Assembly: GCA_000004695.1 (NCBI GenBank)
Contig: CM000154.2
Location: forward strand, 1,440,001-1,504,000
Direction: 5' to 3'
DNA from: Dictyostelium discoideum
Lineage: Eukaryota
Length of the DNA stretch: 64,000 nt
Within the stretch, counting starts at the first letter, position 1. Each line of letters begins with the position of its first letter. Position numbers and translations under genes: made by a program. Positions 8,037 to 47,969 of this stretch are shown here, one piece after another. A model generated the notes under the pieces. That model saw nothing but the letters and a program-made list of their open reading frames with translations. It was not told the DNA's origin and searched no databases.

Positions 8037-9134
8037 TTTTTTATTTATTTATTTAACACACACACAAACACACACAATAAAGAGGGAGAGGAAAAAAAAA
8101 TTTTAAATGAATTATTTATAAACAAAAGTATATATAGTATTTATAAAACTATATAAATAATAAAAAAAAAAAAAAAAAATTATAAAAACTAAATGTAAAT
8201 ATATGTTTTTTTTTTTTTTTTGGTTTTTTTTTTGGTTTTTTTTGGGTTGTTTTTTTTTTTTTTTTTTTTGGGTTGTGTTTTTTTTTTTTTTTTTTATATT
8301 TTTTTTTTTTATATTTTTTTTTTTTTTTTTGGTAATCCTTTTTTTTTTTTGTGTGATTGGAATGAAAATTGGTGATTAAAAAAAAAAAAAAAAATTGGTC
8401 AAGACTGTGAGTTTTTAAAAAAAAAAAAAAAATAAATAAAAATAAATAACAATTAAATTTAATTAAATATTTTTTTAATAATTATTTTTGTTTTTTGTTT
8501 TTTGTTTTTTGTTTTTTTGGTGTGTTTTTTGAGTGGTTTGTGTAAAACACAAGTGAGTGTTTTATTTTTTTTGTGATTATTAATAGATTTGGTTGTCACG
8601 ATGTGTTTTTTTATTATTTTTTTTTATTTATTTTTACTCTTTGTAGGAAAATTAAATAAATAATATAAATACAACAATAATGATATAAATACAGATGAAT
8701 ACAGATAGAATAAATATTGTTTTTTTTTTTTATTATTATTATTATTTTTTTTTTTTTACTTTATTTTATTTACTTATTTATTTTATTTTTATTTTATTTT
8801 TATTTTTTTATGATATTAATTGGTGATATTATTTTTTGTGATATCATACACAACAATTGTTTTTTTATTTTTTTTTAATAAAAAAAAAAAAAAATAATAA
8901 AATAAAAAAAAATAAAATAATAAATAAAAATAAAAAATTATAAAAACACAATAAATTTCTTTTTTTGTTCTAAAATAATAATAGAAAATGATATATTTTT
9001 AAAAAAAAAAAACAAAACAAAAAAAAAAAAAAAAAAAAAAGTTTTTTTTTTAATTATTATTTTTTTATTTTTTTTTTTTTTTTTTTTCTAAATCCTCTAA
9101 ATAAAGGGGTAGCAACATTAAAAATTTAAAAAAA

Positions 9135-9997: not shown

Positions 9998-10185
9998 AAA
10001 CTTGGAAAAATTAAATGTCATAAAAAATTAAATAATAGTCACAAAAAAAATATATTTCCACTTTTGGTTTTGTTTTAATAAATAATTTATTTTTATTATT
10101 AAAAAGGGGGTAAATCAAATGATTTTACTTTTTTTTTTTTTTTTTTTTACTTTTTTACTTTTTTACTTTTTTTTTTTTTTTTTTT

Positions 10186-11162: not shown

Positions 11163-12225
11163 TTATTTTATTTAACTTAATAAAAACAAATTTTTTTTTT
11201 TTTTTTATATAGTCGATCAGTTGAAAATTTGATTAAACTATATTAAAAAAATTCTCTTTAAAAACAAATAAAAAAAATTAAAAATAAAAAAGGAAAAAGA
11301 GGAGGTAATAAAATTTGATTACCAAAAAAAAAAAAAAAAAAATATAACAAAATAAAAAAAATAAAATAGTATAAAAAAATATAATAAAATAAAAATAAAA
11401 AAAAAAAATAAAAAAAATCAATACACTTTTTTATTTTTACTCTATATTTTTTTTTTTTTTTTTTTTATTTTTATTTTTATTTTTTTTCTTTATTTTTACC
11501 TTTTATGGACGAAGAAGAAATTAGAATGAGGTTTGGTTTTAAAATGAAAAAAAAAAAAAAGCCAAATTTTGAATTTGAAAAAAACTTTTTTTTTTTTTTT
11601 TTTTTTGAATTTTTTTTTTTTTTTTTTTTTTTTATTTTATTTATTTATATAAAACAAAAATATCGATCTGATAACAATTTTAAAGTAAAGTTGTGGAGGG
11701 TGTAGGTACAACGAATCTTATTTAAAAAAAATAAATAAAAAAATAATTAAAATAAAATAAAAAATAAAATAAAAAAAACACAAGCCCTGGTTATACTTTT
11801 TTTTTGTTTTTTTTTGTTTTTTTTTGAATTTCAAACAAAATTAAACAGAGAAATTATTATCTATATATCTAAATTTTAAAATAAAAAAATAAAATTCAAA
11901 AAATAGATATAAAAAGTAAATCAATAAAGATAATAATTGCAGTAATAAATTAAAAAATAAAAAAAAAAAAAAAAAAAAGTAAAAAAAAGAATATAGATAA
12001 AAGATAATAAAAGTGAAAAAAAAAAAAATAAAAAAAATAAAAAAAATAAATAAAAAAAATAATAATCATTATATATACATACGTGAATATATATTTATAT
12101 ATATATATATATTTTTTGTTGTTGTAAAATGTTTTTGTGTGTTTTTGTGGGAAGTGTAACGGATATAAAAATTTTTATGTGATTTTTTTTTTTAATTTTG
12201 TTATTTTATTTTTTAATTTTTTTTT

Positions 12226-17655: not shown

Positions 17656-19572
17656 TTTAATCGGAATATTTAATTTAAACAAATAATTTTATTTTTTTAA
17701 AAAAAAAAAAAAAATAAAAAAAAATAATAGATAAATATTTTAATATTAATAAGTTTGAATGTAATAATTTCTTTTTCTCTGTTGTGTAAATGAATAATTT
17801 TTATATGTAGAACAAATTTTAACAGATAACAATAAATTATAATGATATAATTTGTGGTAGTGATTTAAATAAAAAAATTAAAATAAAAAAAAAAATTAAT
17901 ATAATGAAAAAAAAAAAAATATAAAAAAAAATAATAATAATAATTAAAATTAAAATGAGAAAAACACACACTAACACAGTTCGAAAATAACCTAATTGTA
18001 TTATCATGTAATATTTTTAGTTTTTTTTTTTTTTTTTGTTATTATTATTAATAATTAAAAAACCAATTATTTTTTTTTTTTTTTTTTTTTTTTTTTCTAT
18101 TAAAATCGATCGACAAAAATATACACCCACATTTAAGTGTGTTTTTTTTTTTTATTGTGATTTTCTGTTGTTGTTTTTTTTTTATGGTAAGAAACATTTT
18201 ACACAATCCAAAAAAAAAAAAAATAAAAAAAAAATAAAAAAAATAAAAAAATAATAAAAAAAAAAAAGAATAACAACAACAATAGTTGTTTTTTTGTATT
18301 TTATAATTTTTTTTTTCTAATAATATTTTTTTTTTTTTTTTTTAAATGAATTAACTCAATAGATTAAAAAACAAATATATCCATTAAATAAATAGAATAT
18401 TAAAAATAAAAGAAATTACTTAATTTGTAAAAAAAGAATGGAATTTGGGATGATTAAAAAAAAAAAAATTTATTTTTATATTTTTTTTTATATTTATTTT
18501 TACACAATCCAAAATGATTTGGTTTCAATCTTACAAAAAAAAAAAAAAATTGTATATATGAGGAAGTAAAAAAAAAAAAAATGATTTGTAAAATTTATTA
18601 AACTGTCGAATTGATTTATTCATATTATTGGTGATTTTATACAATTGAAAATAAATAAATAATTAAATCAATAAATAAATAATAAAAAAAAAAAAAAAAT
18701 TAATTTTCAATTCAAATTTAAATTGATTGCACAAAAAAAAAAAAAAAAATTCCATATAATTATTTTATTATGTTTTAATTTTTTTTAAAAAACTTTATCG
18801 TTTTTTTTTGTGTCATGTTTTTTTTCTTTAATTATTTTAATAATGTGGGGGGTGTTCGAGTATTGATTGGGTGGATCATATTAATCGATCATGAGAACAG
18901 AGGATCTATAGCCACTCACCCTTTAAATACTCAAAAGTCTCCAAATGATTTTCAACAAAAGTTTTCATTGTCAACTTACTCCCGTAGGACATCGACTAAA
19001 CTTTGTGCGACATATAAATCTTTGTTTCTTCTTTATCTGTTTTTTAAAAGTGAAATGAAAAAAATTTTAATATATAACACTAGTAAACAATATATTATGG
19101 GTCATAAAAATTTTTTTTTTTTTTTTTTTTTCGTTTTTCGTTTTTTCATTTTTTTTTTTTTTTTGACAATTTACAAAATAAATTACCGGTCTATTGTTGT
19201 CAATCCAGACCAATAGTAATTTCAATTGTAATTAATTATAATAAATATAACAATTATAATTATAATTTCAATTCTAAACTCTTTGTAACCTGGTTTATTT
19301 ACTTTTTTTTTTTTTTTTTTTTTTTGATACTACAACAACAACTTTACAAATTTACAATTTAATTTAAAAATTCCTTTAAATATGTTATAATATATAAATT
19401 TTTTTTTTTTTTTATTATTTTTTTTTTTTATTTTTTTTTTATAATGTTACAATGAACAATTTTTATTATATTTTTATATTTTATTTATTTTTTATTATTA
19501 TTTAATTAAAAATTGTTTTCTTATTCTTTTTAATCTTTGCTACTATTGCTTTTTTTTTTTTTATGTATTAAA

Positions 19573-22913: not shown

Positions 22914-23044
<131 letters not shown>

Positions 23045-23357
23045 CTGAGGTGATCACCTTTGTTTTTTTTTTTATATTATATATGAATTATAAAATGGTT
23101 TAATGATGATGAGTGATTATTGATTGATCTATTTATTAAATCCAAGCAAAATAAAAAATCTATTTTTAGAATTTAATTGTTTGGATGTAACAAGACAAGA
23201 CCAAAAAAAAAAAAAAAAAAAGAAAACATTGTTATTTTAAGTTTTGAAATTCTTAAAAAAAAAAAAATTAAGGCAACCAAATTATGGCAATAACCTTTAT
23301 AGTATGCCACATAATTTAATTTTATTATAACTTAAATATTAATTATTATAATTAATA

Positions 23358-23481
23358 TTAGTTTGAGGTATTATTATTATTATTAATATTATTATTTATA
23401 CATTCACCACTATTTTCTAAACTTGTATTATTTGAGTTTATATTATTTTCATTAATATTATTTTCATTAATATTATTATTG

Positions 23482-23567
<86 letters not shown>

Positions 23568-25522
23568 ATTAATATTAATATCTTTTTCAGAGACATTAAA
23601 TTTATAAGAACCAGTTAAAATCTTTAATATATTAATTGCCTCATCAATATCATTTAACCAAATTAATTTATCTTGATAATTATCACAAGAAAGTTTAATT
23701 GATAATGTGTTAACATTTACAGTTGGTGTTGAATTTGTTGTTGTGGTTGTAGTTGTTGGTGTTGAATTTGTAGTTGTTGTAGTTGTTGGTGGTGTTGATG
23801 ATGTTGTATCATTTGTTGAAGATAAATTATTTTGATTATTATTATTATTATTTTGAATATCATTATCATTTAAATAATTAATTGAAATACCAAATTGAAG
23901 TTCTCTTTCAATATCAATAATTTCTAAAATATTTTTTAAAGGAATAATTTTAACCTTTTTTTTAAAGGTACCTTTTTCAAAGATAATTAAAATTTGACTT
24001 AAAAGGTATAAAGTTACAATTACTTTATTACCTTTTTTTTTTAATTTTTTAATTCTATTTGAAGATTTTAAAAATGTTTGATCACGTAATTGTTGTTCAA
24101 TATCTTTTGTACCAATTTCTTTAACAGTTGATTGAATTTTATTATCATTTGCCATTTTACCATTGATATCATTGACGATCTTTTCCATTAATATTAAAGA
24201 ACGTTGGAATATTTTATGATGTTCTTCAGCCTCCAATGAATCATCTTCTGGTGGTAATGCCTTTTTCAACTCTCTTAATAGCAATGGATATTTACAAAGT
24301 CTTTGACATGGTTTAATTAGGAATGATTGTAGATTCAATTGCTTTGAATGTGGTAACGATTTAACATATTGAAAGATTTGATTCACTACATTGTTTCCAT
24401 CGATTAATGAATTCAAAACTTTGATTGAATGATCATGTGTTGATAAATATGAGCCATATCTTTGGAATGCTTTTGAATTGTAAAGAAAGATCTCTTCAAT
24501 ATTGGGATACTGATTCTCATGGTCCAACACTGGTATAATATTCAATAACATTGGGTAAAGGCGTAACGAAACGTAGTAAAGCTCTTCAATATTTGAAAAG
24601 ATTTGATAGATATCATTTGCTGTCATTAATTTATATTTTGACATTTCCAATGCTGCGAAATAATATAAATTAATTATAACCTCCATTTGATCGATATAAT
24701 CTGCTTCAGTTTCAATGATCTCTTTAATCACCTTATTAAATGATGTTGATGAATTAATTGGTGGTAATAATGATTTTCTACTTGGTTTTTGTGATAATTG
24801 AGTGGTGATTGTATATTGTACATTTATCTTTTCGATTAATATAGTCTTTATATCTAATGTATCTCTTCTTAATGTACCTGATATAAATGATGTTTTCTTT
24901 TTATGTGATGATATAAAATTACTAACTGATAATCCATTATTAGGATTAATATTAATTGAAATATTATTAAAACTTGTATCATTTAATGAATTTGTTGATG
25001 TTGTTGTTGTTGATGCTGATGATGATGCTGATGCTAATGATAATGAACTGTTTGAATTATTTGAATTATTTGAATCATCACTATTAAAACTATTAATTAA
25101 ATCATTATTAATATTTTCATTACTATTGATTGTTAAAAATTCATTTGAGACTGAATTTGATGGCGACATTGATGGTGGTGTTGTTGATGGTGTTGGATTT
25201 GCTGATGATGGTGTTGATGGTGATACTGATGTTGGTGTTGTAGATAACGACAAGGATGAAAAATCTTCACCATTTAATTTCATTGATGCTTGTTTTCTTG
25301 TAAAGGTTCTTTGTCTAAGAGTTCTTAAATCTGATGCCGCTATATTTTGAGAATCTTGAATTGGTGCTATAATTGGTGTTTGTTCAATTACTACTGTTGG
25401 TGTATTGGTTATATTTGCTGTTGATAATGATGTTACTGGTATTGGTGATATATCATTTCTTGGTGCAATTTTTGGTCTTGGTGGCTTAGTTGATGTTGGT
25501 GGTAAAGGTTTATTATTATTAC

Positions 25523-25582
<60 letters not shown>

Positions 25583-25873
25583 ATGCTATGGTTTGTGAAG
25601 GTGGAGTTGTTGGTGGTGTTGTTACATTATTATTTATTGTTGTTGTTGTTGTTGCTGTTGTTGCTGTTGTTGATGATGGTGATAAAGTTTGATATTTTAC
25701 ATTTGTTGAATTTATATTTGTTGATGTTTTTGTAGTTGCTATTGTTGGTGGAGTAGTTAAAGTACCACTAGAACTCCATGGTCTCGGTGGTGGTGCAGGT
25801 TTATCATTTGGTGGTGGTATTGGTAAAGTTTTTACAGAATGTGATCCAAGTTTTGAAATATAATTATTATCAC

Positions 25874-25955
<82 letters not shown>

Positions 25956-26756
25956 GTTATTAGTGGTGGTAGTATTTAGTGCTTCATCTGGATTTGGTGG
26001 TACTGGTGAAGTTGGTCTTGATGGTAATTTTGGTAATGGTGAGGGTGGTCTAGTTGGTAATTGACGTCTTGGTGATGGTAATGGTGATAAAATTGTAGGT
26101 GTAGGAGCAGGTGATGGTGATGGTGATGGTGAGCCTGATATATTATTATTATTATTCTTCTTTATTATAGATGTTGGTGATAATGTATTTGGTGATAAAT
26201 TACTTGGTGTATTATTATTGGCACTACCACTATTATTAATGTTATTTATAGTTGATAGTAAAGGTTTTGGTGGTAGAGAGGGTGATGATGATGAAGATGC
26301 TGTTGATGATGATGATGATGGTTGTTGTTCATTATATTTTGAAATCATTGTTGAAACTCCTGAAACTATTAATTAATTTTATTTTTTAATTTATTTTTAA
26401 TTTATTAATTTTAATCATAATGGTTAATTTTTTTTTTTTTTTTTTTTTTTTTTTCCTCAATAATTTTGTTTTTATTTTTTTTATTTTTATTTTTAAAAAT
26501 AATTTCTATACATACATTTCCTTTGAGGTAAAACTTGATGTGTTTGTTGTTGTTGTTGTTGTTGTTGTTGTTGGTTTTTATCAATTTGATTTACAAGAGA
26601 GCCAACACTAAACATTTTTTGGTTAGAATTTTCATTAATAATTTTATTTTTATTTACAAAGGTATTATTATTATTGTTTACCACTGTTGTTGTATTTTTT
26701 GGTGGAGTTAAAAATTGGTGGCTGGGAGATGGATTCGAGGTTGAATTTTTTCTCAT
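23358..26756 (-). CDS. RhoGEF (DH-PH) protein, paralogue B; long Pro/Ser/Thr/Asn-rich N-terminus; probable 5' exon
   Basis: Structure is complement(join(23358..26365,26516..26756)). The main ORF is 23358..26348 (996 aa). Its DH domain is NKVIKEIIETEADYIDQMEVIINLYYFAALEMSKYKL...LIKPCQRLCKYPLLLRELKKALPPEDD...GTKDIEQQLRDQTFL. Its PH domain is KKKGNKVIVTLYLLSQILIIFEK.... The pre-DH motif RTLRQRTFTRKQASMKL is shared with paralogue A (RTRRQRVFTRKAATMKL). The upstream ORF 26493..26756 (MRKNSTSNPS...HQVLPQRK) ends at a GTATGT donor in phase 1. The acceptor aattaatAG at 26366/26367 joins in frame to ...FSGVSTMISKYNEQ. The 5' exon is tentative. Confidence 0.8.
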
Positions 26757-27681: not shown

Positions 27682-28342
27682 TTATTTCTTTTTAAAGAAT
27701 TTTTTATTTTGTCTATGAGAATCAATTGAAGAAGGTATTTCCCTTTTATGGAATGATGGCATTGGAATTTTACGATCATTTGTTCTACCACCACGATCTG
27801 GTACTTTACCAACTAAGACTGAACCAGTTAATAGTTGAGAGGAAGCACTATGAGTACTAGTACGAATGATGTGTAATAAATCTTTATGAACATTTTTTAA
27901 ATCGAAAAATGAGTAATGATTGAGTGATGGTAATGCTTGAATGTAGTATCTAACGGATCTGTTGATCTCTTGAAGTTTGTCAGCGATACGTTCACTCCAA
28001 AGTAAAGATTCCACTGTTACGTCTAATCTTTTTTGAAGTACAATACTTCTTTTCTTATAATCTTGGTATAGAGAATCACTCATTTCTTGAATCTCTTGAA
28101 TTTGCTTCTCTGTAAATTCAGTATTCTTTAAAAATGGTTCACTCATAAAATCACTTGGTAAAAGTTTTAATGTCTCTTTAATCTTTTCATTAATTTGATT
28201 AATTGAATTTGAAAAATTATCAAAATTATTAAATTCAACATTAAATAAATCACTTAGTATTTGAATTTGATTAATTATAAAATCTTCATTATTAATTAAT
28301 TCAATATCTTTCATTTCTTCATCATTATTATTATTCTCATTA

Positions 28343-28397
<55 letters not shown>

Positions 28398-28641
28398 TTT
28401 TTAAAAATAATTCTAATTGAAAAGTTTGTAATTGTAAAAATAAAAATTCAATAAGAGATAATCTATTAAAGTATGAATCTTCAATATTTGTAATTTCTTG
28501 ATAATCACATTCTTTTAATAATTTTTCAAATGGTTCATTTAATTGTTGATTAAATTCTCCAGCTTTTTCAATTTTTTCCATTTTTGTTGGCCATTGAATA
28601 TTATAATAAACTGATAATTCTTTACCAATTGACCAAATTAA

Positions 28642-30618: not shown

Positions 30619-33138
30619 ATGGTTAATTTCACAATCGATCAAATTCGTGCCATTATGGACCGTCGTGAAAATATCAGAAATATGTCTGTTATTGCTCATG
30701 TCGATCACGGTAAAACCACTTTATCAGATTCTTTAATCCAAAGAGCTGGTATTATTGCCGATAAAGTTTCTGGTGATATGAGATATATGTCATGTCGTGC
30801 TGATGAACAAGAGCGTGGTATCACCATTAAATCTTCATCTGTATCACTTCACTTCGAAATGCCAAAGGAAGACAAATTACCAGCTGGTTGTACTTCACAC
30901 GAATTTTTAATCAATCTTATCGATTCCCCAGGTCACGTTGATTTCAGTTCAGAAGTAACTGCTGCCCTCCGTGTTACTGATGGTGCTTTAGTCGTTATCG
31001 ATTGCGTCGAAGGTGTTTGCGTACAAACCGAAACTGTATTACGTCAAGCCGTCGCTGAACGTATCAAACCAGTCTTATTCGTCAACAAAGTCGATCGTTT
31101 CTTATTAGAACTCCAATTAAACACTGAAGAAGCTTATCTCTCTTTCCGTAGAGCTATTGAATCCGTCAATGTCATTGTTGGTAACACTGAAGATAAGGAA
31201 TTCGGTGATGTCACTGTATCCCCAGAAAAAGGTACCGTCGCTTTCGGTTCTGGTCTCCACGGTTGGGGTTTCACCTTAGGTCGTTTCGCTAAATTATACG
31301 CTGCTAAATTTGGTGTCCCAGAAGATAAATTAATGGGTCGTTTATGGGGTGACAGCTATTTCGATGCTACCGCCAAGAAATGGACTTCCAATCCACAATC
31401 TGCCGATGGTAAAGCCTTACCAAGAGCTTTCTGTCAATTCGTTCTCGAACCAATCTACCAATTAACCAGAGCCATCGTTGATGAAGATGCCGTCAAACTC
31501 GAAAAGATGATGAAGACTCTCCAAATCACTTTAGCCCCAGAAGATGCTGAAATCAAAGGTAAACAATTAGTTAAAGCCGTCATGAGAAAATTCCTTCCAG
31601 CCGCCGATGCTATTTTATCTATGATTGTCACCCATTTACCATCACCATTAGTTGCCCAAAAGTACCGTTGTGCCAATCTCTATGAAGGTCCAATGGACGA
31701 TGAATGTGCCGTCGCCATTCAAAAATGTGATCCAAACGGTCCATTAATGATGTACGTATCAAAGATGGTTCCAACCTCTGATAAAGGTCGTTTCTATGCT
31801 TTCGGTCGTGTCTTCTCAGGTATCATCCGTACCGGTCAAAAGGTCAGAATTATGGGTGTCAACTACGTCCCAGGTAAGAAAGACGATTTATTCTTAAAAT
31901 CCATCCAACGTACCGTTCTTATGATGGGTAGAAAGACTGAACAAATTGAAGATTGTCCATGTGGTAACATTGTTGGTTTAGTCGGTGTCGATCAATTCCT
32001 TGTCAAATCTGGTACCATCACCACCTCTGAAGTTGCTCACAACATTCGTGTCATGAAATTCTCCGTATCACCAGTCGTCCGTGTTGCCGTCGAACCAAAG
32101 AATCCATCTGATTTACCAAAACTCGTCGAAGGTCTCAAACGTTTAGCCAAATCCGATCCATGTGTACTCTGTTACTCTGAAGAATCTGGTGAACACATCG
32201 TTGCCGGTGCTGGTGAACTCCATCTCGAAATTTGTCTTAAAGATCTTGCTGAAGATCACGCTGGTATTGAAATTAAAACCACCGATCCAGTCGTATCATT
32301 CAGAGAATCCGTCTCAGAAGAATCATCAATCATGTGTCTTTCTAAATCACCAAACAAACACAATCGTCTCTTCATGAAAGCTTCACCAATCTCTATGGAA
32401 TTACAAGATCTCATTGAAGCTGGTTCTGATATCTCATCCAAAGATGATCCAAAAGCTCGTGCTAACTATCTCGCTGATAACCACGAATGGGATAAAAATG
32501 ATGCCATGAACATTTGGTCTTTCGGTCCAGAAGGTAACGGTGCCAATCTCCTCGTCAATGTCACCAAAGGTGTTCAATATTTGAATGAAATTAAAGATTC
32601 TTTCGTTGGTGCTTTCCAATGGGCCACCAAAGAAGGTGTTGTTTGTGATGAAAACATGAGAGGTATCCGTTTCAATCTTTATGATGTCACCCTCCACACT
32701 GATGCCATCCACAGAGGTGGTGGTCAAATCATCCCAACTGCTCGTCGTGTACTCTATGCTGCTGAATTAACTGCCTCCCCAACTCTCTTAGAACCAATCT
32801 ACTTAGTAGAAATTACTGCCCCAGAAAACGCTATTGGTGGTATTTACTCTGTACTCAATCGTCGTAGAGGTATTGTTATTGGTGAAGAACGTCGTATCGG
32901 TTCCCCATTATTCTCTGTCAAAGCTCATTTACCAGTATTAGAATCCTTCGGTTTCACCGCTGATTTACGTTCCCACACTGCCGGTCAAGCTTTCCCACAA
33001 TGTGTCTTCGATCATTGGGCTTCAATTGGTGTTGTCAACAAAGATAAGAAAGCCACTGAAGTCGCTTTAGCCACCAGAAAGAGAAAAGGTTTAGCCCCAG
33101 AAATCCCAGATCTTGACAAATTCCACGAAAAACTCTAA
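30619..33138 (+). CDS. efbA: Translation elongation factor 2 (EF-2), single exon, 839 aa
   Basis: The ORF is 30619..33138. The N-terminus is [73 protein letters not shown]. The GTP-binding G motifs are present, and the diphthamide-region motif [25 protein letters not shown] and a canonical EF-2 C-terminus are also present. Codon usage is GC-rich for this genome, which fits a highly expressed gene. Confidence 0.97.
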
Positions 33139-33381
33139 ACAATTTAAGTCGCACTTTGAGTTTTCAAATATAGTAATCAAATCTAAAAAAAATTTTAAAA
33201 AAAAAATAATAAAAAAAAAAAAATTAAAAAAAATAATATTTGTTTTGTAATTTATTTTCTTTTTTTTTTAAATTGATGTCCATTTTTAATTTTTATTGTT
33301 TAATATTTCCAAGCCTTATTTGAATAAAAAAATACTTTGTCAAATTACAGTTTCTAATTTTTTTTTTAAAAAAAAAATATA

Positions 33382-33389
33382 ACCCATAA
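33382..33389 (+). promoter_or_regulatory. DUSE (Dictyostelium upstream sequence element, ACCCATAA) about 72 nt upstream of the Class I RNA start
   Basis: The sequence is an exact ACCCATAA within an otherwise A/T-only stretch. It is in the correct orientation and at an approximately correct distance upstream of the putative ncRNA 5' end at 33461. Confidence 0.5.
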
Positions 33390-33460
33390 TTTTTTTTTTT
33401 TTAAAAGTTTGGTAGAATTTAAATTTAGTTTGTGATTATTTTAATGTGTTTAACAAATAA

Positions 33461-33519
33461 GTTGGCCTTACAGCAAATTCTCACAAATTTTTACTGATTA
33501 AAAAAAACCCCTTGTCAAC
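33461..33519 (+). ncRNA. Class I RNA (Dictyostelid-specific small ncRNA)
   Basis: The sequence is GTTGG-CCTTACAGCAA-ATTCTCACAAATTTTTACTGATTAAAAAAAACCCCTTGTCAAC. The exact conserved 11-nt Class I motif CCTTACAGCAA lies immediately after a 5' GTTGG. This GTTGG can pair with the 3' TCAAC (33515..33519) to form the terminal stem characteristic of the class. The length is about 59 nt. A DUSE lies upstream. The location is the efbA/accA convergent intergenic region. Confidence 0.55.
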
Positions 33520-34053
33520 TGTCCACTTTTATTTTTTTTTTGTTTGTTGTCCTGAAACGGGGATAATTTTTTGTGAATGACAAATTATCCACTATTTAAT
33601 GTATCAGTGAAAAAAATTTAAAACAAGATCCAAGCAATTTTAAATTTCTAAACGATTTCTTTTGTAAAATTTACAGACTAAGAAAATTAACATGCAAAGC
33701 TTATTTTATTCTGGAATCTGTGCTTTCGAATATATTTACTTTGCCCAATTCATATAATTAACTACAATTTCAATATTAAATTTATCGATTTAATTCATTT
33801 AATTTAAAACATGGGTGTATTAAAAAAAAAAAAAAAAAAAAAAAATAATAATGCACTAAATTTTAAAATTCTTTATTTGCTAACTCAAACAAAAAAAAAA
33901 AAAAAAGAAAAACTACTTTACATTTTAAAATTAAAATTCATAAATAAAACTATTTCATTGTTTATTCCTTTAATGTATAAACACTGATTAATCAATATTA
34001 AAAAAAAAAAAAAAAAAAAAAAGTAAACCAACAAGTAAAAAAAAAAAGTACAA

Positions 34054-34121: not shown

Positions 34122-37100
34122 TTATTTATTTAAATCTTTTTTCAAAGATTCAAATAAAAATTCTTTTTGTTGAGTTGAAATAAAAGGTAAAAGATTTTGG
34201 AAACCATCAACGATTGATTCTGAATCTGATTGAACAAAATTTAAAATTTGATTGATAGCATATTGTTTTGAAAGATCAATAATCTTATCATTAATTATAT
34301 GAGAATTTGATTCGATTGTTGAAGAAATTAATTTATCGTTTTGATGGTAATCAACTGATTGATTGTTACCAAGGATTTGTTTAATCCAAGTTTCCAATAG
34401 ATTCAATTTTGATTGACGATTTAAACCTGGATGAGATTTATCGATTAATTTTAATTTATCCTCTTCAAATAATCTTCTCTTTATACGATCATAGAAGAAG
34501 GAACGAGCCGATTTCCATGGTACCATTTGTTTAATAACACCCTTTGCTTTCATTCTACCTGGAGTATCATGAAGATCAGCAAATTTAATGGCAATTTGTT
34601 GATAAATACCCAAGAGTTCTTTTTCTCTTTGTTGAATTTGAGATTTAATGGTCTTTTGAGATTGATCCAAACCATTGACACTAACACCAATTGGAATTGA
34701 TTTATCCCATTCAATAAGTTTTGGATCTAAACGATGCATAGTTTTAATGAGTTCTGGATCTCTATATTTAATTTCAGCGATACCATTTGGTTCCAATACA
34801 CCACCTCTACCTTCTTCACTACAATACATTTCCATCATATCCAAATTGATTGTTGAATCTAAAACTACCCAAGCACCACCACGTAATTCAGCAAATGGTG
34901 GAATATAGACCATAACTGGTTGTTTATAGTTTCTAAGGTTATCGACAATCATTGAACCAAATTTAAGGATTTCATCAAACATATCTCTCATACCACCACT
35001 AAAACCTCTCCAATTGGCCAAGATCATCAATGGTAACTCTTCACCATTATTGAAATCAGCGATTGCTTGAGCGGTCTTGAATGAAGAATCTGGATACCAA
35101 ACTTGGCCTGCTTGAGTATTAACTTGTTCATAAGAGAGTGGATTTGCTGGATCAGCAGGAATGATCTTTTCAACACTCTTTGTCTCGACTGCAATGATAC
35201 CAACTGGAATACCACCTAACCTAGCACGACCAGTGATTACAGTATTTGCCCAGCCAGCCAATGTTTCCATGAAACTATCCTTATCAAACATACCAGAAAT
35301 CCAATAGTTTGGATCGAGTTCCGATTGTAAACCTGCAATCAAATGTCTAGTATCACATTTACCATTGATTGAATTGGAAGGATCAAATTCGATATCTCTG
35401 TGTGGTGAATCGATTGGTGAAATAATTGGTACCATTTCACCACCACTCTTTGGTACAAATGATAACCATTGAAGTACATTTGTAATACCACGAAGTTCAT
35501 CATTGACAATGATATGAGAAACACCATTTGGATACATAATTTGTGAACCACCCAATTGTTGATTGGATTCATAGACTTCTTTACCCAAAACTTTATTCAA
35601 AGCTGAAGCACCAGTTAAAATGATTGGAGCATCATTTTGAATGGTTCTTTGACCCAATCTAACTAGGTATGCACCAATACCAACTGAACGACCTGATACG
35701 AGTGTAATTGTAAAGATTTCATTGTAAGCTTGTGAGGTTTCACCAGCGATTAAACCTGACCAACTTAAATTTTCAACACCAATACCATTTTTTTGACCAA
35801 TGATATCATGAATGATCCATTTGTCTTTATCGGTAGTATCTTGATAAGCAATGACACTATCTTTTAATGCTTGATAATCGTTATTGGTTAAATAAAGGTT
35901 TTTAATACCTTTGGTTGGATCGGATGGAACGTTCCAAGTTACTTTAAATTTACTCTTAATTTCATCGGCTAAACCAATTCTAGCACCAGAATTTGAAGAT
36001 AAATAAATTCTTGGTATTTTTTCTTTTCTTGCCAATTCCGAAGCCAATTTAAATAACATATCTTCTTGTGGACCGAATGAACCAATTTGGTGAGTGATAT
36101 CATTAGCAATCACTATGGCCTGTCTACCTAATGGATATTCAGGAGTATAGAAAGTCATTCTCCAAGCTACCATACCAATATCATTGTAACCAATTGGACG
36201 ATAGGTTTCTTCAAGTTTTGGTTTACTCTCTTCTGGTAATTGATCCAATGGAATTGATGGTGGGAAATCAGTATTGATAGTAGATGGTAGAATCAATTCA
36301 ACACTTTCTAAAACACCACGAGATGATGGATAAACCTTGACAGGATTTGTTTTATTTGATTCCATAAATTCCATCCAAATGTTTTGCATTGCCTCTCTAA
36401 AGAGATCAGGATAATCATAACAATAGGTTGTATCTAAACGTTGAGCTTTAAATCTATTTCTTTGAACAGCATCCATAATTGGGTAAGGTGTATCAACTGG
36501 TAAACCTTCCCAACTACCTTTTGAACTACCAGGTACAACTGCGAAAACCATTTGACCAATTGAATTTTGTTGTTCATAATAGCATTGAACTTGGAAAGCA
36601 TAACCAGTTGGGTTTTGTACAAAGAAACGAACTGGAATTAAACCATCACCTTTTCTAATACGACCTCTAACCTCTACACGACCAACTCTAAGTTTCCAAA
36701 GTCTTTTACCTAAACGATCACCAATCTCTTGAACTACATAACCAATCATTTTCTCATCAAACATTACCTCTGGCATTACATTTAAAAATATTGAATGATT
36801 TTGTGCTTTTTCATACTTTTTATTTGACATTGCAATCTCTAATGATTCAATTGACTCTGAGAGTAGAGTTTCAATTTGTGATAATAAAATATCAACTTTA
36901 ATCTCATTGGAATGACCATATAGATCTGAATAACGAATAACTGAACGTACAAAGAAACTACGATCAGCATCCGGATCAGTTTCTTTCTTACCTTTCTCTT
37001 GAGCATAGTAGAGATGAATTCTTTGACTAGTGGTTGGAACGTGAGTTATATCGAAATTTGATAATTTTCTAACCTCTAAATGATAGGCCATAGCTGGTTC

Positions 37101-40100
37101 AATATGTCTAAAGATTGGATCCTCCATATACATATGACGTTCTCTAAAAGTGAAATATTTCAATGGTTTACCTTCATCACCACCACAACAAATAAATGTT
37201 ATACGACGAATACGTGCAATTGACAACTCTTTAATATAACCCTTTAATATTGATTGGAATGAAGAGATAGCTTGATTCTCTTGTGAGATTGATTCTGGAT
37301 AGATTGAAATGATAACACTAAGAATATCTGTACTTTCATTTGGTGAGAGGGATAATTGAGATTTCTTATTATTCTCTTCATTGTAGCGTGTTAAAATCAA
37401 TGGTAATTTCTCTTCAAATTTCTTTTCATTTTCAAAGAATACCATCATACCATAACGAAGTTTTGTTTGATCTTCCATTGCAGTTAATGAGTCAGTTGAA
37501 TCAGTTCTTAACATTGATAAACCATTAAAAATTGACATTGATGGTCTTGGTGAAATTTGGAAACCACTACCACCACTACTACCACCACTACTACTAATAG
37601 ATCTTATTAATGGTGAACCATAAGTTGGTGAGCCACTATTACTACCACCAAGATTTGATTGTTGTGGTAAATTAATATAGAAATGCCATTCAATGAATGA
37701 AAATCCACTTGATCCTTCATCATTTGATAGTGTAACTTTAGTATCTTCAACATAATAGGAACGATAACTATGACGTACATAAACTTCCATTGCTAATTTA
37801 CGAATATCATCATCATTATTTGATTCATTGAAAAACATTGGTATTAAAATATCACTAATTTCATTTGTTTGTTTTGATAATTTTGAAATTTTTTCATCCT
37901 TATTATCTTGAACTTTTTCATCAACTTGTTGTTGTTGTTCATTGTTTACATTTAAAATTGATTTTAATGAATTAATTAAATCATTTGATCTTTGTTTATT
38001 TGAAGGTAATTGAGAATGAACCATGATATGTTTAGCTTTTAAAGAGATTTCCATACAATTACCACCAAGTGATGATAATTTTTTAAATTGTTCAACGAAA
38101 TCACAAACTAAACCTTGTTCTTGAATTTTATTTAGTAATAATAAAATGAATTTATATTTTTTAGATTGTGGATGTAATGATTGAGCGATATCAACAACCT
38201 TTGAAATATTATCTTTATAGGTAGGTCTAATTGATTTTAAAACTGTTTGAATATTTTTATTTTGTAAATTAGTTTCAATTTGAATGAATTCTTCTAAATA
38301 ATTTTTAAAGATATTAATCGCAGCGAATGAAACACCATCATTATATTTCTCTGCTAATAAAATGATTGGTTTAATTAATAATTGAATTGCAATTGATAAT
38401 TGTTCATTCTCTAATAATAATTTATTTAAATATAATGAAATTGATAATTGTAAATTTTTTGAATTAAATAATTCACTATCATCTTCATCGTCGTCGTCAT
38501 TATTAAATTCAAATTTATTTAATTCATCATTAATTAATTTAAATAATGATTGTGGTATTCTTGACTGAACAATTGATAATTGTTCTTTAAATTCAAATAA
38601 TGGTAATTTTTGATTTGATAATTGTTTAATTGTATCATTTAAAAGTTGATTTAAATCATTTGATTCATAACCACATAAAACATTTGAAATTTTACCAAGA
38701 GTATAATTTAAGAGTTGATGTGGTTTATTACCAATTAGAGTTGGTGGTGACATTTTTGTAAGGGAACCAGTGAAAACGGTTGATTTTTGAATTGATGATT
38801 GGTCTGATAATTCCAAGTTAGCAATGATTGCACCAGGTGCCATTACTGAACCTTCAGTGAGTACGAATTTAATGATACCTTTCTCTGGTACTAACAATGG
38901 CATATACATTTTCATAACTTCAATCTCTGCAAATGGAGTACCTTTTACAACTAATGAACCATCATCAACCAAATAACGTACTAATTTACCAGGTGATGAG
39001 GTTCTAAGTATACTTGGATCATATTCTTGAGAGAAAACACAAGTTTTAGAGTCAATCATTAATGATAACCCAATTACATCCTCTCTACCATAACAAACAT
39101 GTGTTGAACCATTCAATAGAATTAATAAACCACTATCGGATAACATTATAACACTTGAATCGATTGAGACTGCACTTTTATCATTCTTTAAACAAACTGA
39201 ATAATTGTTTATACCAGTTCTTGAGACTTCAAATTGATATTTAACATTATTATAGATCAATTCAATTGGTAGCGAATTATTTAATAACTCCAAACTTGGT
39301 AATTGACCATTTGATAATTGATTTGAGAATTCTTGAATCTTTGTTGAGAAAATGGTTGAAGCTTTATAGATTGCACCACATAATACAACGATCATTGTTT
39401 CTGGTTTTTTAGTTTGAATCTTTTCACTAATCAATTGATCTAACCAACCGGTATGAATATGGTTCTCTTTGAAATCTTTACTCTCCAATAAATGAATGAT
39501 ATATTCCACTGGGGTTCTAATATCACCACGAATTGAAATCTCTTTTAGACCCAAAATAATGGTTTTTCTAGCTTCTTCTCTTGTTGCACCATTGGCAAAG
39601 ATATGACCAAATTGTGAATCTGCATACTCGTGAAGACCACCTTTAGCACCAACACTGAAATAACCCCAAATATTTGGTGTACTTCTAAAGGTGAGTTCAT
39701 GGATTTGACCAGACGTTGGTTTAAAACCCTCATCAGGATTTTCACCTGTGATTCTAACTGCAATACAATGACCAGCTGGTGGATTACGTTTAGTGAAATC
39801 GTGTAAATCAATCATTGAATCCCCATAGAGATCATCACCAGTACGACCATACAATTTTCTAATATCCGGTATTCTATGTAATGGTATACCCATTGCAATT
39901 TGTAATTGAGTTGCTGGTAAATTTACACCAGTGATTTGTTCAGTCACTGGATGTTCAACTTGAAGACGTGGATTCAATTCCAAAAAGTAATATTCTCCCT
40001 CTGCAAATAAATACTCTACTGTACCAGCACCAACATAACCAACCTCTTTGACTAAACGTACGGCGGCACGTTCCATCTCTTCCCAAACTTGTGGGGTTGG

Positions 40101-40970
40101 TGCAATTGCTGGACCCTCTTCAATGATCTTTTGATGACGACGTTGTACTGAACAATCACGACCATTCAATGAGATGGCTTCACCATGACGATCGGCAACG
40201 ATTTGAACCTCTAAATGACGGGCATTCGATACTAACTTCATAAAGAAAATCGGTGAACCTGGTACTTCATTTTGAACCTGTCTAAACGATGACTCGAGAT
40301 CCTCCATTGAGGTCACCTTTCTAATACCTTTACCACCACCACCTTCACTTGCTTTAATCATTGCTGGGAAACCAACACGTTGAGCACATTCACGTGCCTC
40401 CTCAACTGAATTGATACATGCACGACCATAGATTTCCGATGGTACGCCATTACATTCGCTATAGTCCACTTTTAATCCACTACCACTCCATGGTACACAT
40501 GCGACACGTGCACTTTGTGCAACGATTGTCGATGCAATTTTATCACCTAAATCTGCCATAGCCTTGGCGGGTGGCCCAATGAAAACTATACCTGTCTCTG
40601 TTTTTGATAAAAGGTCTGGTAAACGTGGATTCTCTGATGCGTGTCCCCAACCGGCCCAAACAGCTTGTACACCAGCTCGTTCTGCAAAATCTACAATAAT
40701 ATCCACATTTGCATAGTTGTTATTATTCGATCCACCTGGTACCTGTAATATTTGGTCTGCCATTCTAATATATTCAGCGTTTGCCTTCATATCCTCTGGT
40801 GTTGCCATCACAACAAATTTAATTGCTCTTTCATTACCAAAGTTTGTATATGCCCATTTTCTAACTGATCTAATTGCTTTTACCGCTGCTATACCATTAT
40901 TTGCAATTAATATCTTTTCTATATTTTTATCACCTCCTAATTTTTTAATATATTCATTAATTTCAATCAT
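34122..40970 (-). CDS. accA: Acetyl-CoA carboxylase (biotin carboxylase - BCCP - carboxyltransferase), about 2280 aa
   Basis: The ORF is 34122..40997 (2291 aa). The listed start is TTG. The first in-frame ATG is at 40970 (MIEINEYIKKLGGDKNIEKILIANNGIAAVKAIRSVRKW...). Biotin carboxylase motifs are present (GWGHASENP, EGGGGKGIRKV, the ATP-grasp fold), as is the biotinylation site EVMKMYMPL and the carboxyltransferase motif (GGAWVV, ANWRGFSGG). A tttcAG acceptor sits immediately 5' of the ATG, so an additional short 5' exon cannot be excluded. Confidence 0.93.
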   Translation of the reverse strand: MIEINEYIKKLGGDKNIEKILIANNGIAAVKAIRSVRKWAYTNFGNERAIKFVVMATPEDMKANAEYIRMADQILQVPGGSNNNNYANVDIIVDFAERAGVQAVWAGWGHASENPRLPDLLSKTETGIVFIGPPAKAMADLGDKIASTIVAQSARVACVPWSGSGLKVDYSECNGVPSEIYGRACINSVEEARECAQRVGFPAMIKASEGGGGKGIRKVTSMEDLESSFRQVQNEVPGSPIFFMKLVSNARHLEVQIVADRHGEAISLNGRDCSVQRRHQKIIEEGPAIAPTPQVWEEMERAAVRLVKEVGYVGAGTVEYLFAEGEYYFLELNPRLQVEHPVTEQITGVNLPATQLQIAMGIPLHRIPDIRKLYGRTGDDLYGDSMIDLHDFTKRNPPAGHCIAVRITGENPDEGFKPTSGQIHELTFRSTPNIWGYFSVGAKGGLHEYADSQFGHIFANGATREEARKTIILGLKEISIRGDIRTPVEYIIHLLESKDFKENHIHTGWLDQLISEKIQTKKPETMIVVLCGAIYKASTIFSTKIQEFSNQLSNGQLPSLELLNNSLPIELIYNNVKYQFEVSRTGINNYSVCLKNDKSAVSIDSSVIMLSDSGLLILLNGSTHVCYGREDVIGLSLMIDSKTCVFSQEYDPSILRTSSPGKLVRYLVDDGSLVVKGTPFAEIEVMKMYMPLLVPEKGIIKFVLTEGSVMAPGAIIANLELSDQSSIQKSTVFTGSLTKMSPPTLIGNKPHQLLNYTLGKISNVLCGYESNDLNQLLNDTIKQLSNQKLPLFEFKEQLSIVQSRIPQSLFKLINDELNKFEFNNDDDDEDDSELFNSKNLQLSISLYLNKLLLENEQLSIAIQLLIKPIILLAEKYNDGVSFAAINIFKNYLEEFIQIETNLQNKNIQTVLKSIRPTYKDNISKVVDIAQSLHPQSKKYKFILLLLNKIQEQGLVCDFVEQFKKLSSLGGNCMEISLKAKHIMVHSQLPSNKQRSNDLINSLKSILNVNNEQQQQVDEKVQDNKDEKISKLSKQTNEISDILIPMFFNESNNDDDIRKLAMEVYVRHSYRSYYVEDTKVTLSNDEGSSGFSFIEWHFYINLPQQSNLGGSNSGSPTYGSPLIRSISSSGGSSGGSGFQISPRPSMSIFNGLSMLRTDSTDSLTAMEDQTKLRYGMMVFFENEKKFEEKLPLILTRYNEENNKKSQLSLSPNESTDILSVIISIYPESISQENQAISSFQSILKGYIKELSIARIRRITFICCGGDEGKPLKYFTFRERHMYMEDPIFRHIEPAMAYHLEVRKLSNFDITHVPTTSQRIHLYYAQEKGKKETDPDADRSFFVRSVIRYSDLYGHSNEIKVDILLSQIETLLSESIESLEIAMSNKKYEKAQNHSIFLNVMPEVMFDEKMIGYVVQEIGDRLGKRLWKLRVGRVEVRGRIRKGDGLIPVRFFVQNPTGYAFQVQCYYEQQNSIGQMVFAVVPGSSKGSWEGLPVDTPYPIMDAVQRNRFKAQRLDTTYCYDYPDLFREAMQNIWMEFMESNKTNPVKVYPSSRGVLESVELILPSTINTDFPPSIPLDQLPEESKPKLEETYRPIGYNDIGMVAWRMTFYTPEYPLGRQAIVIANDITHQIGSFGPQEDMLFKLASELARKEKIPRIYLSSNSGARIGLADEIKSKFKVTWNVPSDPTKGIKNLYLTNNDYQALKDSVIAYQDTTDKDKWIIHDIIGQKNGIGVENLSWSGLIAGETSQAYNEIFTITLVSGRSVGIGAYLVRLGQRTIQNDAPIILTGASALNKVLGKEVYESNQQLGGSQIMYPNGVSHIIVNDELRGITNVLQWLSFVPKSGGEMVPIISPIDSPHRDIEFDPSNSINGKCDTRHLIAGLQSELDPNYWISGMFDKDSFMETLAGWANTVITGRARLGGIPVGIIAVETKSVEKIIPADPANPLSYEQVNTQAGQVWYPDSSFKTAQAIADFNNGEELPLMILANWRGFSGGMRDMFDEILKFGSMIVDNLRNYKQPVMVYIPPFAELRGGAWVVLDSTINLDMMEMYCSEEGRGGVLEPNGIAEIKYRDPELIKTMHRLDPKLIEWDKSIPIGVSVNGLDQSQKTIKSQIQQREKELLGIYQQIAIKFADLHDTPGRMKAKGVIKQMVPWKSARSFFYDRIKRRLFEEDKLKLIDKSHPGLNRQSKLNLLETWIKQILGNNQSVDYHQNDKLISSTIESNSHIINDKIIDLSKQYAINQILNFVQSDSESIVDGFQNLLPFISTQQKEFLFESLKKDLNK

Positions 40971-41459
40971 TTCATCTGAAATAATTTTAAAAAACAATTA
41001 AAAAAAATAAAAATAAAAAAAAAAATAAAAAAAAAAATAAAAAAAAAAATAAAAAAAAAAAAAAAATGAAAATATTAATATTTTAAAACAGTAATTAAAT
41101 TATTTTTAAAAATAAATATGATTAAAAAAAAAAAAAAAAATAAAAAAAAAATAAAGTAAAAAACAAATAAAATAAATACTAATAAAAAACTATATTGAAA
41201 CTATTTAAAGTTTTTAACCTATATTACAATTTTTCTATGTTGGTTATGGTTTGGTTGTTAATTTCCTTATCCCCTTTTTTTTTTTTTTTTTTGTTTTTTT
41301 TTTTTTTTTATTTTTTTTTAAAAAAAAAAAAAAAAATTAATTTTAAATTATAAGTTTGAAAGTTTTAATTTGTTATTGTTATTATTGTTATTGTTTTTAT
41401 TTCTATATTTTTATTGTTGTTGTTATTGTTGTTATTACCCGTATTTTATTATTTTATTA

Positions 41460-42941: not shown

Positions 42942-44969
<2,028 letters not shown>

Positions 44970-46879: not shown

Positions 46880-47969
<1,090 letters not shown>

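Follow-up and report, generated by a model that had tools for sequence, protein, structure and literature searches.

A Class I RNA gene, very probably DdR-31, in the efbA-accA spacer of Dictyostelium discoideum chromosome 5: promoter spacing, terminal stem and patchy presence among close relatives

Class I RNAs of Dictyostelium were reportedly first described by the Soderbom group in 2004. The family is limited to Dictyostelia, and its members have a length of about 42-65 nt (median about 60) and a GC content of 32-41% (Kjellin et al. 2021, Genome Res 31:436, PMC7919456, which is the reference study for the present work). According to the same source (section 10), an AA dinucleotide before an invariant 5' G and a 3' CUGU that pairs with this G are features of the class. 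The genes of D. discoideum are described there with an arrangement of two upstream elements, the Dictyostelium upstream sequence element (DUSE) and the TGTG box, and T-runs are found downstream of many of them. Class I RNAs are mainly cytoplasmic and developmentally regulated (PMC7919456). DdR-21 is bound directly by Rnp1A, also named CIBP, an apparently essential protein with a pair of RRMs (RNA recognition motifs), and the knockout of DdR-21 results in more and smaller fruiting bodies (PMC7919456). Here, we analyzed a stretch of 64,000 nucleotides of D. discoideum DNA (the window), in which an initial annotation made from the letters alone had placed a Class I RNA gene with a DUSE between the genes efbA and accA. 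We conclude with high confidence that positions 33461-33522 of the forward strand are the gene for DdR-31, a dictyostelid-specific Class I RNA encoded in the efbA-accA spacer of chromosome 5. DdR-31 is already known, annotated and experimentally validated, and the gene itself is not new.

The assignment to the family is supported by the covariance model (CM) RF01414 of Rfam (Dicty_Class_I_RNA), which matches 33461-33521 (+) over its full length (model 1-56) with 48.8 bits versus a gathering threshold of 41.5 and an E of 2.3e-6. The covariance-model search had been proposed as a check in the initial annotation, and it turned out favourably, with the ends forming the stem through 6/6 standard pairs. 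This is the sole RNA-family match in the 64-kb window, at gathering thresholds as well as at E<=1. At the latter setting the Rfam scan of the whole window yielded no second non-coding RNA (ncRNA), including no small nuclear RNA (snRNA) or other DUSE-driven ncRNA gene, and a scan with ARAGORN detected no tRNA. The assignment to DdR-31 relies on the published data. Window positions 33461-33521 are identical at 61/61 nt to the DdR-31 sequence in the supplementary FASTA of Kjellin et al. 2021. In the published General Feature Format (GFF) file this RNA, listed as r31, is located at DDB0232432:1473461-1473521 (+) and is linked to DDB0237383 / DDB_G0295607 and to GenBank AJ699392 from the Soderbom group (PMC7919456); the window therefore corresponds to chromosome 5, 1440001-1504000. 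A mismatch between the window sequence and AJ699392 or r31 was looked for and none was found, and there is no evidence against the identity with DdR-31. The r31 row of Table S2 has a classifier score of 64.48 and a CM score of 46.1, the latter obtained with the authors' own CM (PMC7919456).

The other properties of the locus agree with those of the class. The RNA has 61-62 nt and a GC content of 34% (24% for the window), both within the Class I range, and its location in the 983-bp spacer between the genes for eEF2 and acetyl-CoA carboxylase is intergenic, as membership of the class demands. The AA, the 5' G and the CUGU are all in place, with C33519 of CUGU paired to G33461. The exact 11-mer CCTTACAGCAA occurs once in the window and in 0/100 dinucleotide-preserving shuffles, and the code of the study authors also gives motif position 6 for DdR-31 (PMC7919456). 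The initial annotation had recognized this signature correctly at 33466-33476, but the GTTGG said to lie 5 nt before it directly adjoins the motif, the distance of 5 nt being right only when counted from the first base of GTTGG. It expected an ORF-based annotation to miss the gene, which has in fact been annotated, in GenBank (AJ699392) and in dictyBase (DDB_G0295607). The predicted transcript of 55-60 nt was too short: the annotated RNA has 61 nt, or 62 nt with the final U, and the feature should reach as far as 33522 so as to include CUGU, and further to take in the T-run (33527-33541). The TGTG box, the CUGU 3' end, the T-run and the existing annotation had not been mentioned. Its central claim of a Class I RNA gene with a DUSE between efbA and accA is borne out by the RF01414 score above threshold, the 61/61 nt identity with DdR-31 and the same DUSE in the published data.

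DdR-31 is strongly expressed. Its published read numbers in duplicate libraries at 0 h, 4 h and 8 h are 561,763 and 713,293, 774,003 and 979,132, and 898,436 and 937,144, respectively, and its read coverage was scored 1 (Table S2, PMC7919456). When Class I RNAs are ordered by raw counts, it takes second place at 0 h and third place, behind DdR-21 and DdR-60, at both 4 h and 8 h (PMC7919456). The accession AJ699392 is derived from cDNA. The features of the locus and the nine related loci considered below are collected in Table 1.

Table 1. Features of the DdR-31 locus (window coordinates) and related loci (own coordinates).
Feature	Position	Strand	Remarks
DUSE, ACCCATAA	33382..33389	+	exact; -79 to -72 relative to G+1
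TGTG box, TAATGTG	33442..33448	+	1 mismatch to AAATGTG; 60 nt past DUSE start, 19 nt before G+1
Two conserved A residues before the 5' G	33459..33460	+	reads ...caaatAA followed by GTTGG
Mature DdR-31 Class I RNA	33461..33522	+	61 nt annotated (33461-33521); 62 nt with last U of CUGU
GTTGG	33461-33465	+	exact string
Terminal stem, 5' strand, GUUGGC	33461..33466	+	CM alignment
Conserved 11-nt Class I motif, DNA CCTTACAGCAA, RNA CCUUACAGCAA	33466..33476	+	starts at RNA position 6; first C in stem
Terminal stem, 3' strand, GUCAAC	33514..33519	+	CM alignment
Conserved 3'-terminal CUGU	33519..33522	+	kept in L001, L002, L008, L009
T-run, TTTTATTTTTTTTTT	33527..33541	+	5 nt past RNA; candidate RNA polymerase III terminator
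efbA, elongation factor 2, 839 aa, upstream neighbour	30619..33138	+	Pfam EF-G/EF2 domain set
accA, acetyl-CoA carboxylase, downstream convergent neighbour	34122..40997	-	Pfam ACC_central, Carboxyl_trans, biotin carboxylase, Biotin_lipoyl
L001, D. discoideum GCA_054883475.1			independent assembly; 99.7% identical over 12.5 kb; identical gene and flanks
L008, 'D. discoideum' GCA_054859385.1	8812-8873		RNA in efbA-accA spacer; RF01414 51.5 bits
L009, 'D. discoideum' GCA_054859355.1	8793-8854		RNA in efbA-accA spacer, same as L008; seen by motif search plus alignment alone
L002, 'D. cf. discoideum' GCA_054859235.1	8836-8903		RNA in efbA-accA spacer; RF01414 42.4 bits, 67 nt
L007, D. cf. discoideum GCA_054859205.1			no Class I match within ±6 kb of efbA
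L005, D. citrinum			no Class I match within ±6 kb of efbA
L006, D. dimigraforme			no Class I match within ±6 kb of efbA
L004, D. firmibasis			no Class I match within ±6 kb of efbA; downstream neighbour differs
L003, D. purpureum			no Class I match within ±6 kb of efbA; neighbourhood rearranged

The promoter elements were compared with the published description. For r31, Table S2 reports the DUSE ACCCATAA with a duse_dist of 70 and a FIMO score of 13.38, and the MEME output likewise contains this element; the TGTG box TAATGTG is given with a TGTG-box_dist of 11 and an inter_dist of 59, measured end to end (PMC7919456). All three distances (70, 11 and 59) are reproduced from the window coordinates when the 150-nt upstream frame of the authors (window 33310-33459) is used. 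Measured from start to start, the DUSE at 33382 and TAATGTG at 33442 are 60 nt apart, which is the spacing expected of a Class I promoter. The exact DUSE announced about 72 nt upstream of the RNA is indeed there, the last base of 33382-33389 being 72 nt before G33461. Its distance of 72-79 nt from the 5' G, where about 60 nt would be canonical, is explained by the TGTG box, the gene belonging to the D. discoideum type that has one. In Class I genes devoid of this box (DdR-35, DdR-36, DdR-65 and DdR-66) the DUSE is found 56-60 nt from the RNA start, whereas in genes that have it the DUSE-to-box distance is 57-61 nt and the box-to-RNA distance 8-29 nt (Table S2, PMC7919456).

By itself, the DUSE octamer is no more frequent in the window than chance predicts (3 matches versus 3.28 expected), and only where it lies with respect to the RNA makes it informative; for the degenerate form WCCCAYAA, 5 matches compare with 10.6 expected. 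The other DUSE-like matches, at 12145 (-), 19095 (-), 31850 (-) and 32993 (+), were rejected as promoter elements, being at chance rate or below and followed by no Class I match; those at 31850 (-) and 32993 (+) sit in the efbA open reading frame (ORF). The match at 19095-19102 (-) is a second exact ACCCATAA that overlaps only a mechanical ORF of 133 aa on the other strand (18815-19216, +). About 80 nt downstream of it on the minus strand, ATG...GGGAGTAAGT resembles a short first exon followed by a 5' splice site, and Rfam gave no match in these surroundings.

The nine related loci were obtained by exact look-ups of EF2 orthologues, and their organism names are used as labelled. The RNA of L008 and L009, GTTGACCTTACAGCAAATTCTCTCAAATTTTTACTGATTAAAAAAAACCCCTCGTCAACTGT, has three differences from DdR-31 of strain AX4 (G5A, A23T and T53C), and the DUSE there reads TCCCATAA. 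The copy in L002 has the motif CCTTAAAGCAA, a longer A-run, a TGTG-like box AAATGTA and a 9-nt deletion between the box and the G. In L002 the motif, at 8841-8851, shows a C-to-A change at motif position 6, a position reported to be almost invariant (PMC7919456); DdR-57, for which there are no reads, also has A at this position. The L002 copy barely exceeds the Rfam threshold (42.4 versus 41.5 bits) and may be a decaying one. The DUSE core CCCATAA is kept in L008, L009 and L002, and the DUSE-to-box spacing is 60 nt in the window and L001, 60 nt in L008, 60 nt in L009 and 61 nt in L002. Between the window and L008, identity reaches 95% for the RNA and 92% for the interval that runs from the DUSE to position -1, versus 66% upstream of the DUSE and 80% downstream of the RNA; upstream of the DUSE, the orthologous loci are only 66-70% identical. 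This profile indicates that constraint spans the promoter interval and the whole RNA, beyond the motif and the stem.

In the five remaining loci (L003-L007), Rfam and motif searches within ±6 kb of efbA, the part of these genomes that was searched, revealed no Class I gene. Only the first 125-170 nt of the spacer align to that of the window in L005, L006 and L007, a portion that plausibly represents the efbA 3' untranslated region (UTR). The presence of the DdR-31 locus in some close relatives, with none near efbA in others, suggests that it was recently gained or lost. Such a patchy presence fits with the scant synteny of Class I genes and their expansion by duplication (PMC7919456); on the synteny of DdR-31, Supplemental Fig. 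S8 of Kjellin 2021 gives nothing. The efbA-accA region of L007 contains a long AT-rich and near-perfect hairpin at 10018-10115 (-), which scores weakly with mir-1954, an unrelated miRNA model (26.7 bits, gathering threshold 99, E 0.07). Most probably this hairpin is no more than an inverted repeat.

How the mature RNA is produced can be proposed from these data. The DUSE at -79 would be a position-fixing promoter element, akin to the proximal sequence element of snRNA genes. It would cause transcription to begin at the TGTG box, about 60 nt further downstream, and a short leader would then be trimmed away; we lean modestly towards this sequence of events, because the DUSE-to-box spacing is constant across orthologues and paralogues and the box-to-RNA distance is variable. 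For DdR-31 the leader would count about 19 nt from the start of the TGTG box and would be cut back as far as the invariant 5' G. Transcription is probably carried out by RNA polymerase III (Pol III), a possibility already raised for Class I genes (PMC7919456). It would stop in the T-run at 33527-33541 and the 3' end would be trimmed to CUGU. The resulting 62-nt RNA is predicted to close its ends with the 6-bp stem and to leave the 11-nt motif CCUUACAGCAA single-stranded. That the TGTG box is the true transcription start and that Class I RNAs are excised from a 5'-extended precursor is a tentative proposal, its case falling just short of even. Several published points count against this scheme: the authors left open which of two roles the TGTG box has, that of a promoter element or that of a precursor start, RNA-seq reads begin at the G, and Pol II genes as well as Pol III genes are associated with a DUSE (PMC7919456).

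For the same gene, another biogenesis deserves to be weighed, in which the TGTG box would serve as a second and proximal promoter element and transcription would start directly at G33461 with no leader to be processed. We regard it as somewhat less likely than not. The 5' ends of D. discoideum Class I RNAs have been placed at the conserved G by RNA-seq and by earlier mapping, the AA before the G is kept in all species, even those devoid of a TGTG box, and the box is tied to higher expression in Group 4 species, with both roles left open (PMC7919456). However, the near-constant DUSE-to-box distance (57-61 nt) contrasts with the variable box-to-RNA distance (8-29 nt), and a start at the G would therefore need a DUSE acting over a variable 68-90 nt. 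The L002 copy also speaks against a direct start: its 9-nt deletion (L002 8765-8836 versus window 33382-33461) shortened the box-to-G distance from 19 to 10 nt, yet the DUSE-to-box distance is still 61 nt. Initiation at the TGTG box followed by trimming accommodates this geometry.

Downstream of the RNA, CACTTTT followed by the T-run is kept in all orthologous loci. A small GC-containing hairpin, TCCTGAAACGGGG, with ATAATTTTTT after it, lies at window 33550-33572 (+), about 30 nt past the DdR-31 T-run, and is partly kept in L008. It was flagged only by a scan for terminators of the bacterial type, a bacterial model applied to a eukaryotic host. In the same scan for sigma-70 promoters and intrinsic terminators, promoter-like matches were at chance level, these bacterial models being uninformative for this eukaryote.

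The terminal stem merits closer consideration. In Class I RNAs, a short stem of 6 bp joins the two ends and is conserved as a structure and not as a sequence. In the CM alignment, the stem of DdR-31 has 6 bp, all of them standard pairs (6/6) including one G·U, G33465·U33515, with C33466-G33514 as the sixth pair. The initial annotation had described GTTGG as complementary to a TCAAC 54 nt downstream. TCAAC is found at 33515-33519, 54 nt from the start of GTTGG, but the complementarity is not full owing to the wobble at G33465·U33515, and the stem comprises 6 bp. Folding of the RNA, which had also been suggested as a check, gave an unfavourable outcome: the minimum free energy (MFE) structure of 33461-33521 obtained without constraint (-4.4 kcal/mol) does not contain the terminal stem. 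With the stem forced the energy is -3.9 kcal/mol, and the ensemble probability of the stem is about 0.37. Both results weigh against the closing of the ends in the scheme above. The MFE fold has instead a 4-bp 5' hairpin that pairs GUUG with CAGC of the motif (G1-C14 to G4-C11). The folding z-score is -0.18, and 85/200 shuffles fold at least as well.

For this family, thermodynamics by itself speaks neither for nor against membership, and the support for the stem comes from the CM alignment and from covariation in the family. The stem probability has a median of 0.91 across 37 curated D. discoideum members, and 32/37 show 6/6 standard pairs. Covariation was assessed on 18 end types, all distinct, of Class I RNAs that come from D. 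discoideum and D. firmibasis and, in addition, from one of the orthologues described above. Stem positions are paired in 94.4% of the cells versus 73.8% in shuffles, double-sided changes number 18 versus 4.0 expected, and the observed score was reached in 0/500 shuffles. When the partner strand is slid by 1-3 columns, stem pairing collapses to 10-43%. The terminal stem is a well-supported family feature, and DdR-31 is among its weakest instances.

Part of this weakness may be traced to a single base. The RNA has A at position 5 in L008, L009, L002, DdR-33 and DfiR-2, and G only in the window and L001 (AX4-type sequences); the G5 of AX4-type sequences is therefore derived. DdR-44 also carries G at position 5. 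The A5G change (window 33465) turns an A-U pair of the stem into G·U. When G5 is changed back to A in silico, the stem probability rises from 0.37 to 0.93 and the probability of the competing 5' hairpin falls from 0.62 to 0.06. A5G may thus move the predicted fold towards the 4-bp 5' hairpin, over part of the 11-nt motif, a weak prediction at energies of about -4 kcal/mol. Despite the wobble, DdR-31 is highly abundant in published RNA-seq data.

Two further explanations were considered. According to the first, the motif, the stem and the DUSE co-occur by chance or in a dead copy, and there is no independently expressed gene. The chance rate of the DUSE octamer, the marginal thermodynamics of the stem and the existence of high-scoring candidates that have no reads (DdR-57, DdR-45 and DdR-62; Table S2, PMC7919456) would be in line with this. 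It is nonetheless refuted by the published 0.56-0.98 million reads per library and the scoring of the locus as expressed (PMC7919456). The attachment of GenBank AJ699392 (Soderbom group) to the locus, the CM E of 2.3e-6, the absence of the exact 11-mer from 100 shuffles and the 92-95% identity to L008 of the RNA and DUSE-to-G interval, versus 66% upstream of the DUSE, also speak against it, and we consider it extremely improbable. To an equal degree we discount the idea that the small RNA is a processing or read-through product of the efbA 3' UTR with no transcription unit of its own: although it lies on the same strand close downstream of efbA, a DUSE and a TGTG box of its own stand at canonical spacing and are kept in orthologues, Class I candidates devoid of a correctly placed DUSE are unexpressed (PMC7919456), and D. 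citrinum, D. dimigraforme and L007 keep the first 125-170 nt of the spacer but not the RNA, so that the efbA 3' region and the RNA are separable units.

The two protein-coding neighbours bear the names efbA and accA in D. discoideum nomenclature; what was tested is the identity of the proteins. The upstream protein is identical to P0121, i.e. EF2_DICDI P15112 / XP_636721.1 of D. discoideum AX4, and the efbA stop codon is located 322 nt before DdR-31 G+1. At the accA position a product of 2282 aa was called in L001. D. discoideum has a second EF2-like paralogue outside the window, P0015, named 'elongation factor 2 [D. discoideum AX4]', with 853 aa and 77% identity. Its counterparts in D. firmibasis, D. 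citrinum and D. dimigraforme are P0014, P0020 and P0031, respectively. Elsewhere in the window, simple repeats of period 3 cross-match each other (22915-23045, 23438-23587, 25510-25581, 25859-25962, 28293-28403, 43402-43531, 47706-47888, 60482-60582 and 62786-62906). They also match L001 at 258-377 and 2649-2805, with BLAST offsets in 3-nt steps. They are probably codon-repeat tracts typical of Dictyostelium genes.

Regarding function, cytoplasmic DdR-31 could be bound by the RRM protein Rnp1A (CIBP) and could help to control early multicellular development, by analogy with DdR-21 and given the membership of both RNAs in the same family. Against this extrapolation it has to be said that for DdR-31 itself no data on knockout, Rnp1A binding or localisation were found, a full-text literature search on this RNA being empty, and that in a CLIP-seq (crosslinking and immunoprecipitation sequencing) study of RNP1A the binding of ncRNA comes up solely through citations of earlier work.

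The discovery value of this locus is little, since DdR-31 already has a GenBank accession and a dictyBase entry, and RNA-seq validated it again in 2021. It can rather be seen as a positive control, in that a tool-free reading of the raw sequence correctly recognized an ncRNA gene specific to the lineage, together with its promoter element. The small additions made here concern the evolution of Class I genes: a patchy locus, a constant DUSE-to-TGTG spacing and a G·U wobble in AX4-type sequences only.

When the locus is set beside known systems, no difference is seen from DdR-31 (r31): the sequence, the position, the DUSE, the TGTG box and the distances all agree, and it is the same gene. The DUSE-driven snRNA and other ncRNA genes of D. 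discoideum share with it a DUSE, located about 60 nt from their start site (PMC7919456, citing Hinas and Soderbom). Unlike DdR-31, they have neither the 11-nt motif, nor the terminal-stem architecture, nor the TGTG box. DdR-21 resembles DdR-31 in its 6-bp terminal stem, the identical 11-nt motif, the DUSE plus TGTG box and very high expression. It differs in an unrelated variable region, and Rnp1A binding, structure probing and a knockout phenotype are reported for DdR-21 only. The most similar Class I RNA of another named species is DfiR-2 of D. firmibasis, the variable-region core TTTTACTGATTAAAAAAAACCCCTT being common to both. DfiR-2 was not found in the ±6 kb around efbA of D. firmibasis (L004), a gene that also has another downstream neighbour there, and synteny with the DdR-31 locus is therefore unsupported. 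The nearest paralogue is DdR-33, at a different locus on chromosome 3. It has the same architecture and a near-identical variable region (…CAAATTTTTACTGATTAAAAAAACCCCT…), with 4 substitutions and 1 indel compared to DdR-31, and is also highly expressed, from a gene with the DUSE TCCCATAA. In contrast to DdR-31, it has the canonical A at stem position 5 (A-U), with a predicted stem probability of 0.93 versus 0.37. At three positions, the wild-type DdR-31 orthologues (L008 and L009) come nearer to DdR-33 than DdR-31 of AX4 does.

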